Assembly: GCA_951406725.2 (NCBI GenBank)
Contig: OX597823.1
Coordinates: 30,318,001-30,382,000 of the forward strand
Source: Octopus vulgaris
Taxonomy: Eukaryota
Reading direction: 5' to 3'
Length of the DNA stretch: 64,000 nucleotides
Positions within the stretch are counted from its first letter, which is position 1. Each line of letters starts with the position of its first letter. Below the pieces are notes generated by a model. The model worked only from the letters and a program-made list of their open reading frames with translations. It was not told the origin of the DNA and did no database searches. A program made the translations under genes and the position numbers. Below are positions 6,139-57,368 of this stretch, piece after piece.

Positions 6139-6621
6139 GAGTAGTTTTATTTTTATAGCGTGCTTTCACTTCACTATCGAGCGCAGCTCTGTGTGCCTTG
6201 GGTATGTGCTGTGATTTGTTGTGATGCTCTGATTGTTATTGTATGGAAAGTGTTCTGCGTAGGATGTGTGCAGTGCCTAGAAGTGCAATTTTCTGCATGT
6301 TACATGTGTTTGTAATTCCTGGTGTTTTTGTTATGTATTTGTCTGAATATTTTTTTATCATGCCTAATGCACCTACTATGATAGGAATTGTTTCTGTTTT
6401 TAGATTCCACATTCTGGTTACCTCTATTTCCAGGTCTTTGTATTTTGAAAGTTTCTCCATTTCTTTTAGAGTCACGTTGTCATCTGCAGGTATTGATACA
6501 TCAATTAGAAAGCATCTTTTTTCTTCATGATCTCTGACAACTATATCTGGTCTGTTGGCCTTAATTTCTCTATCTGTGTGTATCGGCATATCCCAGAGTA
6601 TGGTTGCTTTCTCGTTTTCTG
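6139..6621 (-). mobile_element. 5'-truncated R4/Dong-like LINE: RLE endonuclease C-terminus + 3' UTR
   Basis: ORF 6236..6589 ANRPDIVV..FLIDVSIPAD..EKLSKYKDL..PIIVGALG (PD..D RLE motif); (TAA)n on both sides. Confidence 0.9.
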
Positions 6622-6642
6622 TATTATTATTATTATTATTAT

Positions 6643-6716
<74 letters not shown>

Positions 6717-6724
6717 TTTGTTTG

Positions 6725-7075
6725 ACTCAGGCTTGGTCTTATTCCTGCTAGGATTTATGTGGGTAACCTTAGATGTCCACAAGTTTTCAGCAGTCTTTCA
6801 AGTGCTTAGAGCCCTCCTAATAACCCTAGCTGTCCCTAACAGACAAACGTTAGCAGGAGCTTTACAGGGAATACCATTCCAATTTCCATCAGCCATTTGT
6901 CTATATCTTTGCTTACTGTTCCCAACAAAACAATCATCTTAGACAACACGATCTTAACAGTTCTCACGTGCCTAATTCTTCCTATTTCAAATTTAAGGGA
7001 TTGTATGTTTTGTTATGATCCAGTATAGTTTTTCTTTCTCATTTAAGGTTATGTCTGGATTCTTATTCTCTATCT
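6725..7075 (-). mobile_element. Older degenerate RLE-type LINE C-terminal fragment
   Basis: NKNPDITL..IVLLGTVSKDIDKWLMEIG resembles RLE C-terminus; stops present. Confidence 0.5.
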
Positions 7076-8590
7076 CATTGTCGGCTCTTCCTTCCCGTTT
7101 CAAGGAAGAAGGCGCGACAACATTCACGATAGATTCGGTTGATAAACTGACTCGTCCCACACTGCGATAGCAGTCGTTCGACATGGGCCCACAAGTCAGA
7201 AATGGTTGGACATTGTAAGAGTGCGCGTAGAACGGTTTCGTCGCTCTGACCACATCTCGGCAGGTCGGCCCCGTGTTTCTCGAGCCATGTCTGTAGAGCT
7301 TATCCCGAACGGGTGGCGCTTCTCGATAACACTGCCAGCCCAAGGATCTCTGGAAGTTGTCCATAGGTACCGGCCCGAAAGTTGTCTTGAACAGGCGGGG
7401 CAGGTATTTCTCGTCGACGCCCAGGTTCGCTCCCAGATCGTCGTCGCACCTCTCCTCCACTAATCCCCTATAGAATGCTTAGGTTGTGTTGAAGTCGATC
7501 ATGGTCGACCCGGGACGGCATAGTCGCTTGAGAGCAACGCGACACTCGCGGCGCCATTCGCCCTTCCTCGGCCTCTTTTTGATCCACGACTGCAGTTCGG
7601 TCATGGAGACGAGCTGCGGGAAATCGCGCCTCAAAAACGGCGACTACACCTGTTTACCGTCGTCTACGTAGAGCTGGAGGAGTAGCAGTCTCAGCGCGTG
7701 TCTGCCCATCATCAACCACAGCATGCGCAGCCCTCCTTTTAACGGGTGTTGGCAGCAAACGGATCCCCTGACCATCGGAGCGCATCCTTTCCACAAGGAG
7801 CGAAGAGAATGCGTTCTAGTTTGGTGATGGTAGGGTCGGGACAAGGCACAACGGTCAGGCGGTGGTAGATGACGGAAGCGATGTGCGTGATCGCCACTTC
7901 CAGCCGACCTTTTAGGGACAGCTTCCTCTCGGCCAATTGGTGGGCGAGAGTGACCACCCTACTCGTTATCTCGTTCCAGTTCTTCTCCGTTTGGAGGTCC
8001 GGACCAAACCAGACACCGAGCAACTCGACCGGACCGTCGGTCCAGCGTCCCGTGACGGATGCTCTGGTGGACGGCATGGGCTTGCTTCTCCAGGTGCCGA
8101 GCCGCAAGCCCACTGACATTTCCCGGTTGACTTTCGCTCCTGTGACCGCTTCGTAGTCTTTCAGTGTCTCGCCGACCCGCTCGATGTGCTTCTGGCTAGA
8201 TACTATGCCGATGACGTCGTCCGCCTATGCAGACACGCTCGTCCCGCATCCCAATTCTCGCGGAATGCTCCTCAGCGTCGCCAGCTTCCGCAGTAGTGGC
8301 TCGAGAATCGATACGTATAGAAGCGACGAGAGGGGGCATACTTGACGACCCGAACGTGCAACGTCTTGATAGATGTCTATTTACGCGAATTACCGAACGG
8401 ATGCCTCTGTACAAAGCAGCTATCCAACCACGGAAGACGAGACCGAGGCCAGCCGCTCTGAGGACAGCCTCCAAGTATCTAGGGTCTACCCTATCGAAAG
8501 CTTTGGATTGATCCAAATTCATCAGGGCCACACCCATGCCGGGTTCCTTAACTATCCTGTCTATGATGTAGCGCATCAGATGGAGGTTGT
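7076..8590 (-). mobile_element. Degenerate L1/Tx1-like LINE reverse transcriptase fragment
   Basis: LDQSKAFDRVD, A*ADDV (mutated YADD), VELLGVWF..W..RKLSLKGR, GGL; GC-rich, frameshifted. Confidence 0.85.
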
Positions 8591-8690
8591 CATGGATACA
8601 TACCTATATACATCCATCCATGCATACATACATACGTACATACACACATAAATACATACATCCACGAGCACACACCCATATACACATACG

Positions 8691-24159: not shown

Positions 24160-25291
24160 GCAGTTTTATTTTTATATCGTGCTTCCACTTCACTACCCAG
24201 CGCAGCTTTGTGTGTCTTGGGTATGTGCTGTAGTTTGCTGTGATGCTCTAATTGAAAGAGTTTTGCGTAGGATGCGTGCTATTATTATTATCATTATTAT
24301 TCAGCAGTTTTATTTTTATATCGTGCTTCAACTTCACTACCCAGCGCAGCTTTGTGTGTCTTGGGTATGTGCTGTAGTTTGCTGTAATGCTCTAATTGAA
24401 AGAGTTTTGCGTAGGATGTGTGCAGTGCCTAGTAGTGCAATTTTCTATATGTTATATATATTTGTAAGCCCTGGTGTTTTTATGTATTTGTCTGGATATT
24501 ATTATTATTCATACCTATTATGCGCCTATTATTGATATTATTATTATCTATTATTTTATTATTCCATTATTCGAGTTTAGTCTTTATTATTATTGAAAGT
24601 TATTCCATTTATTATTATTAGAAACTTGTCATCTGCTGGTATTGATACATCAATTAGAAAGCATTTCTTTTCTTCATGATCTCTGACAACTATGTCTGGC
24701 CTATTGGCCTTAATTTCTCTATCTGTGTGTATTGGCATATCGCAGAGTATGGTTGCTTTCTTGTTTTCTGTGACCTTTTGTGGTGTGTGCCTATACCATC
24801 TTTTTTCTGTTGTTATTCCATAGTGTTGGCATGGCTTCCAGTGTATGTAGGTCCCAACTCTGTCATGTCTGTGAATATATTCCTTCTTAACTAGGACTGG
24901 GCAGCCAGAGATCATATGATTTATTGTTTTTTGTCCATCTCCACATATTCTGCAGTTACTTGTTATGTTTCTTTTCATATGTTTTTGGTAATTTCTGGTG
25001 GGGAGGCTTTGGTCTTGTGCTGCAATTAAAAAACCTTCAGTCTCTGCTCTGAGTCCTGAGCTTCTCAACCATTGCTGGGATTTTTCTCTGTCTTTTTCTT
25101 TTGCATTTAGTTTAGCCCATGAAGGGCCTTTTCTTGCCATCGTTTTATCATGGTCTGTTTCTGTTCTAGTTTTAGTTTGGATTTAATTTGTTTTATAGCT
25201 TTTGTTGTTACTTCTTCTTCTTCATATTTGTTAGGTAGTATAACTGCTTGTTTGTATTTGTCAGCTTCCTTACATACTGAGAACAGTTTTT

Positions 25292-39662: not shown

Positions 39663-39718
<56 letters not shown>

Positions 39719-39719
<1 letters not shown>

Positions 39720-41042
39720 CTCGGCGAATGAGCAACCTCAGAAAAGGACTATTAAAACAACGAACTTAGCACCTGAGCAACTCTTGACCCCTATAAGAAC
39801 TGAAGAAGTCACCCAGGCACTGCAAAAACTAACCAACTGGAAGGCACCTGGGCACGACAAGGTCCCCAACTTCTGGTTAAAATATCTGTCAGGAATATAC
39901 AAAAAGCTGGCTGAAAATTTTAACGACATACTAGCAGAGCTAGAGACAATGCCTGAATGGCTCACGAAAGGGAAAACTATCTTAATTCCCAAATCCAATG
40001 AAACGGCAAAACCACAAAACTACAGACCTATAACCTGTCTCCCTACAATGTACAAAGCCTTTACTGCAATAACATCGCAAAGATTGAGCAAGCATCTGGA
40101 AGGAAACAACCTGTTTCCAGAAGAGCAGAAGGGATGCTGCAATGGCTCATATGGCTGTAAAGATCAACTAATGATTAATAAAGCCATAACTGAAGACAGC
40201 CGCAGAAAGAAGAAAGATCTCAGTATAGCCTGGATCGACTACCAAAAGGCTTTTGATAGTATTCCCCTCACGTGGATCCTCGAAACACTAGTCATTAACA
40301 AGGTAGCACCAATAATTATAAATTACATAAGACACTCAATGAATAAATGGCAGACAGTGCTACAGCTCCAAACAAAAGAGGGACTCGTGAAAATCAAAGC
40401 CATCCGCATTAGAAGAGGAATATTCCAGGGAGACACGCTCTCTACACCCCTTTTCTGATTGGCACTGACACCTGTATCTGATATGCTAAATAGAACTGGA
40501 TGCGGATACAAATGTTACGGCAAAACAATCAGCCACCTTTTATATATGGATGACCTAAAAATATGCGCTACAAATGATAAACAGCTGGAAAGACTACTAC
40601 ACAGAGTATATGGATTTACCAAAGAAATAGATATGAAATTAAGCCCAATAGGCCAGATATATTTGTCAGAGATCATGAAGAAAAAATGCTTTCTAATTGA
40701 TGTATAAATACCAGCAGATGACAACGTGTCTCTAAAAGAAATGGAGAAACTTTCAAAATTCAAAGACCTGGAAATAGAGGTAACTCGAATCTGGAATAAA
40801 AAAAAACAGAAACAATTCCTATCATAGTGAGCGCATTAGGTATGATAAAACAATATTCAGACAAATACATAACAAAAACACCAGGGCTTACAAATATATA
40901 TAACATACAGAAAATTGCATTACTGGGCACTGCACACATCCTACGCTAACTACTTTCAATACAGTAACCATGAGAGCATCAAAGCAAGCAACAGCTGTGC
41001 TGGGTTGTGAAGTGAAAGTACGATATAAAAATAAAACTACTG
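39719..41042 (+). mobile_element. R4/Dong-like LINE, 5'-truncated and internally deleted (RT + RLE end)
   Basis: WKAPGHD, YRPITCL, EQKG, AWIDYQKAFDS, RGIFQGD, HLLYMDDLK, then RPDI..FLIDV and same 3' UTR as 6139..6240; (TAA)n on both sides. Confidence 0.92.
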
Positions 41043-43848: not shown

Positions 43849-45261
43849 TTATAGTTCATTCCAAAATCCCAACTTGAGTTCATTCTGGTTATCGCATGCC
43901 AATATAATTCCGTTTTGGTTAGTGACAGCCATAGAACAAGGACAAGCTAAACCATCTTTTGGCGACAAGAAGCAACTTAACTTCTCCGTTTGCGTGTTTA
44001 GTCTGAGTATTTTGTCAATGCCGAATCCTTGGCTGATATAAACATCGCTTCCTAGCGAAACGACATCTGTTGGTTGTCGAATGTTATAACTAGTCCAGCC
44101 GACATAGGGTTTGAAACAGTAGACAATCCCATTCGATGTGTCAGCGATATAGATATCCCCTTTCGATGTAAGGTGGACACGTTTATGACCCTTTAAACTA
44201 TAGAAAGGAAGCTTAAGGATTGTCAGTTCGATGGTTGTGTCATGTGTAAGACTTACGAATTTCAGGAGCGGCTCTCCATAACCGATGGCCAAAAGATGCG
44301 AATCGCTATAGAAATCAATGCCACTGTACTGAATGGATGTCCGAAACACATGAAGCAATTCAAAGCTTTTTGTGGGCAACAGCTTAACAACATAAAGTTT
44401 TTGGCAGCTAGCTGTCACTACAATTTTATTTTTACCGAACCAACATATCCCATATGGTTCATGGGATAACACCAAACGAGCCACCACTCGCTTATTATCG
44501 TACAAAGACAAACATTTACGACTAATATTAATCACTACATAATAACCTTCGTTGGTTCTAAGTAATCCACGGTAATTCCAGCCGCGATATGATCTCACTA
44601 CTGGTGACATACTTAAGTCCGTAACTGCTGATTTCTTATACTTGCTGTCGTGTCTTTCTTTGGATTCGCCTGTATCTATCGCCATGTTTCTTCCTCCGGT
44701 TTTATATATTTCTCCACCATTACCTGATGGAGTTGAAAACAACACAGCTTCCTTCAAAAACGGGAGAATTTTGTTCTGGATTTCAATATAAACAGAAATA
44801 ACTTTCTTCATCTGTAATTCTCTGTTTGGATAAAAATGTTCTCCCTTGTTTTGCGGACGACAAACTAAAGATTTCTCTCTATAACACAAATTTTCTTTCA
44901 CCGTCGGAACTTTGTAAGGATCTTCTGGTGCCGCTTTCGTTTTCCTTATTTTACTTTCGTCATCCATTAGATGTTTCAGTTGCTTCTCAAGTCTGACCAA
45001 CACATTCATGCAGGTATCAATGGGAAACTGTGTGACCAATTGATCTAAATTGGAGTTCGATAAACAGTGTATTGATTTACGGCATGTGGGACACAAGAAA
45101 CAGCTTTCCTCTTTGACCTGCTGTAATTTACTGGAAATATATTCCTTCAGACAATTGGTACAATATGTGTGGAGACATGGCAACACACGTGGTTCTGTGT
45201 AATCTTCAAGACATATTATACAGGCTGATAATGTAAAGTCTGTTTCGGCAGCTTCTGCCAT
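43849..45261 (-). CDS. RING (C3HC4) + NHL-like beta-propeller protein, TRIM-like E3 ubiquitin ligase, 470 aa, uninterrupted ORF
   Basis: CIICLEDYTEPRVLPCLHTYCTNCL..CPTCR TRIM-type RING; C-terminal repeats EPYGI, YSGI, DIYIADTSNGIV, IRQPTDVV, LACPCSMAV..ILACD; only long complex ORF in the window. Confidence 0.88.
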   Translation of the reverse strand: MAEAAETDFTLSACIICLEDYTEPRVLPCLHTYCTNCLKEYISSKLQQVKEESCFLCPTCRKSIHCLSNSNLDQLVTQFPIDTCMNVLVRLEKQLKHLMDDESKIRKTKAAPEDPYKVPTVKENLCYREKSLVCRPQNKGEHFYPNRELQMKKVISVYIEIQNKILPFLKEAVLFSTPSGNGGEIYKTGGRNMAIDTGESKERHDSKYKKSAVTDLSMSPVVRSYRGWNYRGLLRTNEGYYVVINISRKCLSLYDNKRVVARLVLSHEPYGICWFGKNKIVVTASCQKLYVVKLLPTKSFELLHVFRTSIQYSGIDFYSDSHLLAIGYGEPLLKFVSLTHDTTIELTILKLPFYSLKGHKRVHLTSKGDIYIADTSNGIVYCFKPYVGWTSYNIRQPTDVVSLGSDVYISQGFGIDKILRLNTQTEKLSCFLSPKDGLACPCSMAVTNQNGIILACDNQNELKLGFWNEL

Positions 45262-45462
45262 TATCCTCTCCTCCTTTTGAAATGGCTAAAGAAACTTTTG
45301 TCTCAGACGTAACATCTCTCCTATATATATACTCACCAACGTGTGTGTGTGTGTGTGTGTGTATGTGTGTATGTGTGTGTGTGTGTGCGTGTGTAAGCAG
45401 ACGCGTAGATTTTTATGTATGAATGTGTATGTATATATATATGTGTGTGTGTGTGTGCGTGT

Positions 45463-52855: not shown

Positions 52856-52931
<76 letters not shown>

Positions 52932-53100
52932 GCCCTGATGCAGTACCAATGCCCTGATGCAGTACCAATGCCCTGATGCAGTACCAATGCCCTGATGCAG
53001 TACCGATGCCCTGATGCAGTACCAAAGCCCTGATGCAGTACCAATGCCCTGATGCAGTACCAATGCCCTGATGCAGTACTAATGCCCTGATGCAGTACCA
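52932..53100 (+). repeat. 19-bp tandem repeat gccctgatgcagtaccaat, 8 full copies plus a ninth running into the element
   Basis: Counted by eye; unit equals the 5' end of the ~555-bp element. Confidence 0.92.
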
Positions 53101-56142: not shown

Positions 56143-56832
56143 GGAGGAGGAGGAGGAGGAGGAGGAGGAGGAAGACGGTGACGACCACGACGACTACAAC
56201 GTCGGCGACGGCAGCAAGGAAGACGACGGCGGAAGTACCTCGGGTGGCAGTAATGGCACTGATGATAGGCGGGATGCTAATGGAGGAATTATGATGATGA
56301 CAACAACAACAACAGCGATGACAGCAGCAATGACGAGTAAGAAAACTTCATAGAATCATCTGAAAATATCTTGGTTGGTCCCACTGTGTATGTTTTTTTT
56401 TTGTTTTTTGTTTTTTTTCCTCATTCTATAACTGTCGAGGGGCTCATTTTATCTATGGCAGACATTTACAGACATGATTTTCTTTATGTTAACCGTGACT
56501 TGCTTCTTCTCCATTACAAAGTTTTCGCACCGAGCGAAGCAACCAGAAAGAAACTCATCTGGTTTACATATTTCCATGTCCATCATTATTGTAATAAACA
56601 GAGTTGTAAACCTACCTGCAAGCGATTCTAGATGTGTTTTTGGTATCGTATATGTCTTTTGCTGGGTTGCCAGATACATTCGTTCGGGGTTTTTTTCTTT
56701 TTTTTTTACCTGCTCCGTCCTACAAAAACCAAAAACATGTACGATAAAACATTTTTATCGTACATTCGAAGCTTTCTTCCAAGGGATCTAATGCGCTTGG
56801 CTTAGATTTCCCTTGGAGGCTGCCCAGTCGGA

Positions 56833-56893
56833 GCAATTTCAAGATTAATCAGCCGAAATTGCGAAGATGATCCGGTTCTTGACTGATGACTGA
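56833..56893 (+). ncRNA. Candidate non-circularly permuted hammerhead-like motif
   Basis: GCAAU-U-UCAAGA ... UCAG-CC-GAAA-UUGC ... UCUUGA-CUGAUGA-CUGA; stems I and III perfect, stem II with 2-nt insertion. Confidence 0.45.
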
Positions 56894-57368
56894 GGGCTTC
56901 GAATGTCCCGTCCTGTGGTTCTTGTGTCGTCTTCTAGGTGTTTCACGTTCTTGTCCCAGTTTGTATATATTTTTTACTTTTTACATATATATATATATAT
57001 ACGATAAAACATTTTTATCGTACTTGTTTTTATTTTAATCCTTACATTTCATCAACAGTTTTAACAAATATATCACCCAAATATATCTGGTAGACAGAAC
57101 TGCATGGAAACTCGTCACATATGTATGGGGAAGGCGCGAGTTCGACTATGAGTATGTGCACGAGGTCGCGTTTATGAGTAGCTGGAATATATTTAATACA
57201 TATTGCTAGGAGACACAGGAGGTATAGAATAAATATAGATGAGAAATATCAAATACATATAACCGCGACATATGAAACACATACACTTGGGTGATATACG
57301 ATAAGACATTTTTATCGTACTTGATTTTGGTTTTTGTAACCCTATTCTTCCTCTACAACTTTTGTTAA

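Follow-up and report, generated by a model that had tools for sequence, protein, structure and literature searches.

The closest described systems to the motif reported here are the type SGC and type CSG hammerhead ribozymes, which have been validated and in which stems I and II are connected by an 'I' helix (Eckert et al., 2023; PMC10085705). The pertinent passages of that study treat block C as indivisible, since in all known alignments CUGAnGA is separated from its stems by no more than 1-2 nt, and give type CSG as five sequences from soil DNA (PMC10085705). Hammerheads are also carried by Penelope-like elements (PLEs), where those of metazoans are reported to work as dimers and commonly have one nucleotide inserted at the A9/G10.1 position (PMC4209133). 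The Naiad PLEs are described as being without canonical hammerheads, eight of them marked 'half core' with no fold given, and the relevant part of File S2 lists no hammerhead for them (Craig et al., 2021; PMC8557442). A literature search, in which the supplement of PMC10085705 was covered by terms only, returned neither a hammerhead opened at A9/G10.1 nor a description of non-circular hammerheads in Naiads, and no opened A9/G10.1 hammerhead was found in the passages covered of Perreault (2011) and Forgia (2023).

The window, i.e., the whole 64-kb stretch of DNA that was analyzed (G000:C10:30318001-30382000), belongs to a microsatellite-rich animal genome of 2.8 Gb (G000) and includes a motif with exactly such an opening. 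Positions are given in hammerhead numbering, and the link between A9 and G10.1 forms a metal site in the hammerhead. To our knowledge, there is no natural hammerhead without a covalent A9-G10.1 link. A study by Weinberg from 2015, reportedly a reference for hammerhead variants that carry extra helices, could in part be a precedent. In the window, the RNA of a non-coding PLE-like repeat probably holds a complete hammerhead core in the order cleavage strand, GAAA strand, CUGANGA strand (S-G-C), opened between A9 and G10.1 and with a predicted cut after 56838 that would most likely be brought about by docking of neighboring copies.

The original prediction of a hammerhead core with this non-circular strand order was borne out, and the core holds across five repeat families (A to E, the window copy belonging to A). 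All of the parts that it named were recovered in place, namely GCAAU (56833-37), U17 (56838), and UCAAGA (56839-44), followed by UCAG-CC-GAAA-UUGC (56849-62), UCUUGA (56877-82), CUGAUGA (56883-89), and CUGA (56890-93), together with a closing stem (56762-72/56896-906) and a hairpin (~56779-816). The proposed cut position, 56838/56839, is likewise supported at the level of sequence. Stem II takes its 5' strand from further upstream, which opens the core between A9 and G10.1 (Table 1). The closing stem fills this gap and, although it had been taken for a competitor of stem II, is conserved as part of the fold. Helix X was absent from the original model.

Table 1. Features of the motif and of the repeat copy that carries it (positions within the window).
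Feature	Positions	Strand	Basis
Left 24-bp direct repeat, target-site-duplication-like; last 3 nt overlap the element start	56740..56763	+	Exact match with 57000-57023
5'-truncated family-A copy, ~240 nt, with (TA)n tail	56761..56999	+	40/40 scored copies match from 56761 at 97-99%
Helix P0, 5' strand, at the A9/G10.1 gap	56762..56776	+	MFE and centroid folds; P0 start 0-2 nt past A9 in A, C, E
Hairpin P1, immediately 5' of G10.1	56779..56816	+	Folds; seen in A, B, and D, weakly in C, not in E
Stem II, 5' strand GGCUG (G10.1 = 56818), apart from CUGAUGA	56818..56822	+	Pairs with the 56850-54 columns at 98.8%
Helix X, 5' strand, analogue of the type SGC 'I' helix; 1-nt deletion in the window copy	56824..56829	+	5/7 double changes, 79.7% paired; deletion from alignment
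Stem III, 5' strand GCAAU (U16.1 = 56837) and H17 (56838); predicted cut after 56838	56833..56838	+	Covariation
Stem I, 5' strand	56839..56844	+	99% paired, 4/6 double changes
Stem II, 3' strand CAGCC (C11.1 = 56854), G12-A15.1 (56855-58), and stem III, 3' strand	56850..56862	+	Covariation, fold
Helix X, 3' strand	56869..56875	+	Covariation
Stem I, 3' strand, and C3-A9 core CUGAUGA (G5 = 56885)	56877..56889	+	Covariation; N7 = U, G, or A among families
Helix P0, 3' strand	56892..56906	+	Folds
Right 24-bp direct repeat	57000..57023	+	Exact repeat

A descriptor of the S-G-C core (stem I of at least 5 pairs and stem III of at least 4 plus A15.1-U16.1), written after the motif had been seen, matched exactly once on both strands of the window, at the present motif. 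Three S-G-C cores arose in 400 dinucleotide shuffles of the window and none was accompanied by an upstream stem II of at least 5 pairs and an extra helix of at least 5. The motif region was also predicted by folding to be more stable than shuffled sequences (z -2.56). Rfam gave no match at gathering score in the window, and its six weak matches at 56600-57100, up to an E value of 10, included no hammerhead.

Pair counts were based on 20 copies of families A, B, C, and E (17 distinct sequences), picked among descriptor-passing copies out of 120 fetched loci that were the best matches to the queries; family D was kept outside the counts because MAFFT misaligned its cleavage strand and was treated by descriptor. 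Over A, B, C, and E together, 93.1% of 390 cells were paired and 15 of the 23 pairs were doubly changed (1/500 shuffles), counts that stem from four to five related families and in which cells are not independent events. Controls with slid partners were 16-45% paired. Stems I and III stood as proposed, each being 99% paired with 4/6 and 3/5 pairs doubly changed, respectively (17 distinct sequences, four families). The partner of the strand before GAAA proved to be a strand ~15 nt upstream of stem III, with three of its five pairs doubly changed, giving GGCUG/CAGCC in A and E, GGCUGG/CCAGCC in B, and GGGCA/UGCCC in C. The opening pair of this stem II, G10.1-C11.1, was G-C in 17/17 sequences of A, B, C, and E, and G10.1 was present in 21/25 family D loci. 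Helix X adjoins the stem II strand and pairs just 5' of the stem I 3' strand; it was one column out of register in family C and weakest in family A, where an alternative register scored equally. Both the upstream stem II and helix X were found by descriptor in 28/30 loci of A, 10/30 of B, 6/30 of C, 10/25 of D, and 29/30 of E.

The same counts bear on whether the motif is an ordinary type SGC hammerhead with intact block C, whose stem II would be the CUGA/UCAG helix with a CC bulge that had been put forward at first. The four CUGA/UCAG pairs do exist in family A, but in the alignment they were 54.4% paired with double changes in 0/4 pairs, they lack G10.1-C11.1, and they were lost in B, C, and E. 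An adjacent stem II of at least 3 bp occurred in none of the A, B, C, and E loci and in 2/25 of the D loci. With the CUGA strand taken up by P0, this arrangement is very improbable. The consensus of the aligned copies thus keeps CUGANGA and the complementarity of stems I and III, and it is the pairing of that stem II that fails. A classical reading across adjacent units (S1-C1-G2) was also considered and rejected, as the strand before GAAA had no pairing partner downstream of A9.

All of the hammerhead core elements were present, i.e., CUGANGA (C3-A9), GAAA (G12-A15.1), and U16.1-H17, and 13/13 core positions including G10.1 and C11.1 equaled the majority letter in all five families. Variation was confined to that allowed in hammerheads, N7 being U, G, or A and H17 being C or A in the five families. 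G10.1 did not follow A9 by up to 1-2 nt, the spacing given in the passages on block C (PMC10085705), and the strands did not form the nested three-way junction in circular C-G-S order of types I, II, and III, their order being S-G-C. The comparison strongly supports the motif as a conserved fold, with catalysis as a prediction. It is improbable, if still to be reckoned with, that this fold is conserved without cleaving or is protein-dependent, serving as a binding or priming signal for the reverse transcriptase of the element. PLE hammerheads are weak in vitro (PMC4209133) and one PLE hammerhead is described, in the sections concerned, as cutting only with protein and as dispensable for insertion in vitro (PMC11167929), both of which would agree with such a signal. 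In the opposite direction, G8, G12, G5, U16.1, and H17 (not G) were kept across families and phyla while all helices changed, a pattern that is hard to explain without selection for a hammerhead active site.

The A9/G10.1 gap itself has a conserved structure. After A9 the chain enters P0, the opposite strand of which lies upstream of G10.1, with P1 (A, B, and D) or 3 nt (E) between; the close spacing of P0 to A9 listed in Table 1 was also seen in the fold of B, and P0 was weak in D. Splicing or circularization could in principle connect A9 with the G10.1 of the following unit, restoring an intact CSG or SGC hammerhead in the processed RNA, and PLE repeats do carry introns able to reshape the hammerhead (PMC4209133). 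A donor-like GTAAGT site was present ~130 nt downstream of the A core and, in D, 5 nt past A9. Against such joining, no GU followed A9 and no AG preceded G10.1 in 5/5 families, P0 was conserved across the gap, and, as a weak point, the contigs of four runs (contigs only) showed neither an A9-G10.1 joint nor other informative joints or RNA ends, making this the least probable of the explanations weighed here.

An opened core remains the preferred reading, and it is most readily compared with type SGC (HRIMA-1 and its variants), with which it shares the strand order and full core, a short linker between stems I and II (5, 4, 5, 1, and 5 nt in A to E vs. ~3 nt there), and an extra helix between the outer ends of stems I and II, here helix X (PMC10085705). 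Unlike type SGC as set out in the same passages, block C is split here with P0 and the RNA ends between A9 and G10.1, helix X connects to stem III at either end, and the copies are animal chromosomal retroelements in their thousands, 'octopus' being absent from the text of the supplement (PMC10085705). Judged from the pairing, the topology would correspond to a type CSG/SGC hammerhead that has been circularized and reopened between A9 and G10.1.

The pairing suggests a mechanism in which P0 would close a junction that leaves the 5' strand of stem II and the stem I strand with CUGANGA single-stranded. Helix X, a small internal loop, and stem III would form a rod, the 20-nt apical loop of which would carry the cut site and GAAA, and pairing of this loop with such a junction would produce stems I and II. 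The predicted folds of B, C, and D showed the rod of X and III with an open loop; in the predicted ensembles of A (locus L002) and E, stem II was a simple hairpin and the probability of X and III was near 0. The loop of one tandem unit may dock into the open junction of its neighbor, an arrangement to which an even chance is given. It would fit the tandem arrays and the dimer behavior of PLE hammerheads, and the role could be the cutting of tandem transcripts into unit-length RNAs; for other PLE hammerheads, unit-length cutting is a proposal only.

The same helices could instead be formed by one unit that folds on itself as a multi-pseudoknotted monomer, with X folded back against stems II and III, the arrangement proposed for type SGC. 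In the sections on constructs with one copy of the SGC or CSG ribozyme, cleavage took place during transcription and depended on the I helix (PMC10085705). The G000 families have an X of 5-8 bp with linkers of 2-4 and 5-8 nt to a 5-6-bp stem III, approximately the required length, and the linkers of A, B, C, and E share several invariant positions. By step counting, self-folding requires X and its linkers to span stem II, the core, and stem III, which is borderline in the G000 families. The tying of X to stem III at both ends rather than at one speaks against the monomer, as do two Naiad ends, EuTe (1-nt bulge) and Amil (0 x 7 nt), where X and III form a near-continuous rod of 15-22 bp that is too long for self-docking and cannot fold back unmelted (by eye and step counting). 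A self-folding monomer is hence regarded as rather unlikely, and two-unit docking is preferred over it because self-docking needs a strained fold-back and the docking of neighbors does not.

In the window copy, 5' truncation is accompanied by C17U and one deletion, which probably impair it. Its U17 is atypical, being found in 2/30 family-A copies compared to C17 in 28/30, and extended stem III to 8 bp with a probability of 0.63 in the predicted ensemble. This extension would hide GAAA and, together with the deletion in X, would probably make the copy slow or weak.

Family A was abundant in G000, with 7,642 matches to a 25-nt pattern at up to two mismatches compared to 0 for the reversed control. 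Whole units were 720-830 nt, non-coding, and often arranged head to tail (loci L008, L029, and L030), and copies had variable 5' truncation, (TA)n ends, and at times inverted neighbors. As 5' truncation, tandems, inverted copies, and (TA)n targets are given as PLE features in the relevant text (PMC8557442), family A qualifies as a non-autonomous PLE-type repeat, and the window element is a truncated copy of a small, tandemly arranged non-coding repeat that is likely mobilized like a PLE. Searches with diverged neighbors yielded the related families B, C, and E (1,623, 2,327, and 1,609 first-look candidates, 40 scored each), with units similar in build to A. Families A and E were young, with 0.99 identity to the majority among the best copies.

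Several further features of these repeats were observed. A 23-nt palindromic motif occurred three times in the window (56741-56763, 57001-57023, and 57298-57320), two of which flank the insertion while the third lies 300 nt beyond. Upstream of the ribozyme domain, families A, B, and C had retained a small tetraloop hairpin, GUC-GAAA-GAC (L008, ~1365-1380; L039, L044, L078, and L086, ~130 nt upstream of P0). At G000:C27:25601593-25617738 (L210-L220), at least 11 units with a period of ~1.33 kb each held two family-E ribozyme copies and a microsatellite block.

The repeats combine traits of several known hammerhead-bearing elements. With Naiads they share (TA)n insertion, 5' truncation, partial tandems, and inverted copies, as far as the corresponding sections describe them (Craig et al., 2021; PMC8557442). 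Like PLE hammerheads, the motif has a position at a retroelement terminus, a tandem context, likely two-copy activation, and tolerance of insertion between 9 and 10.1. PLE hammerheads differ in their circular C-G-S order, in a stem II formed as a hairpin, and in a stem III that is very small or missing; here stem III is stable, and stems I and II would be formed by docking. Non-LTR retrozymes are likewise non-autonomous, non-coding tandem hammerhead units with a proposed PLE-repeat origin (PMC7229834; bioRxiv 10.64898/2026.07.22.740005), yet they carry classical type I hammerheads, compared to the opened S-G-C form in 660-830-nt units here.

Family D of G000 was identified as the 3' end of Naiad_Obim/Ovul, with 769 matches to a motif derived from Obim. 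It had the same core as A, B, C, and E and wholly different helix sequences (GACACC/GGUGUC, CGGAU/AUCCG, AUGGU/ACCAU, and CUGCCC/GGGCAG, with H17 = A), and an identical wiring was recognized by eye in the Naiad_Obim end, the helix sequences of which are unrelated. Family D lay downstream of Naiad reverse transcriptase (RT) on the same strand in 11/30 RT loci, 10/40 further regions, and L120. The last of these held an endonuclease (EN; N-terminal GIY-YIG), RT pieces, and then the motif in order, with broken ORFs, which places D among the Naiad PLEs; the Pfam matches in L120 were GIY-YIG at E 0.0015 and RVT_1 at E 0.016, both under curated cut-offs. For A, B, C, and E, only the shared fold suggests a Naiad derivation.

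The last ~380 nt of 53/54 published Naiad consensus sequences were surveyed by eye and unaligned (PMC8557442). The opened wiring was found in 10/53 ends (Bfor, 3_Chem, Amil, Anas, Aacu, 2_Movir, Plae, EuTe, Obim, and Ovul), from ctenophore, cnidarian, acanthocephalan, crustacean, and octopus hosts. Two of these were weaker, Bfor having a stem I of just 2 bp and Aacu two mismatches, and P0 and P1 around the gap were visible by eye in Bfor, Amil, and 2_Movir. An intact type CSG with a long I-type helix was seen by eye in six nematode ends (1_Nbra, 2_Nbra, 3_Nbra, Hcon, Hpol, and Asuum), of which Asuum had one extra nucleotide past A9, likewise the position of the common PLE insertion. Within the last ~380 nt, neither form was found in 37/53 ends, with ambiguous ends (the Dst families, Smim, Ptep, and Esco) scored as misses. 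The ends of 4_Chem, 1_Movir, Mgal, Bpla, Mphi, Scon, and Mmer looked twister-like. A further conserved motif was shared by the Naiad ends of oysters, Tgra, Pmar, Skow, Pfla, and 1/2_Chem. Naiads may swap their terminal ribozymes. The type CSG sequences from soil DNA might originate from nematode Naiad-like ends.

Taken as a whole, the proposal that the hammerhead is opened in a fourth way, with the RNA ends leaving through a new helix in the core at A9/G10.1 in addition to the non-circular strand order, that the active site is made from two tandem units so that only multimeric transcripts are cut, and that this form together with the nematode CSG is the missing Naiad hammerhead from ctenophores to octopus is put forward tentatively, its chances falling slightly short of even. 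If true, it would break the rule that CUGANGA and the stem II strand are inseparable, so that permutations beyond the six thought possible would exist, and non-circular hammerheads would amount to thousands of animal chromosomal copies and not just rare metagenomic RNAs. It would also answer the published puzzle of the hammerhead-less Naiads, explain why descriptors and Rfam missed them, and supply a natural example for asking whether the A9-G10.1 link is needed.

Family A itself does not qualify as a Naiad PLE, having neither an ORF nor a sequence link to a Naiad ORF. Six Naiad protein pieces gave a single match in the 120 A, B, C, and E loci, to a separate neighbor. The partner search covered the best 150 of 735 and of 12,461 candidates for Naiad RT and EN, respectively, and the best 150 of 6,136 for GIY-YIG, with 83 regions fetched, and among these best candidates no autonomous partner of A, B, C, or E was found in 30 GIY-YIG loci, 20 further PLE regions, and 73 Naiad loci. 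The motif was missing from the GIY-YIG loci and further PLE regions except for D, which occurred in two of them, and for a family-E insertion in L240 that was truncated; the E pieces in L128 and L240 are separate insertions. The G000 Naiads were broken, whereas A and E are young. Loci L228, L233, and L252-L255 held young PLEs with intact 781-/784-aa frames of RT and C-terminal GIY-YIG. The motif was not found in these young 781-784-aa PLEs, and it is a guess that they could mobilize A and E. The 781-aa PLE family terminated in a minimal hammerhead-like motif, degenerate and with a core of the U3-A8 type.

Elsewhere in the window, fragments of LINE-type reverse transcriptase and endonuclease frames were recognized by eye at 6236-8603, 24577-25182, and 39718-40458. 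An apparently intronless 478-aa stop-to-stop frame at 43849-45285 (-) resembled by eye a protein with a RING-like N-terminus and a beta-propeller-like tail, and nine tandem copies of a 19-nt unit were located at 52931-53099 within a tRNA-like SINE.
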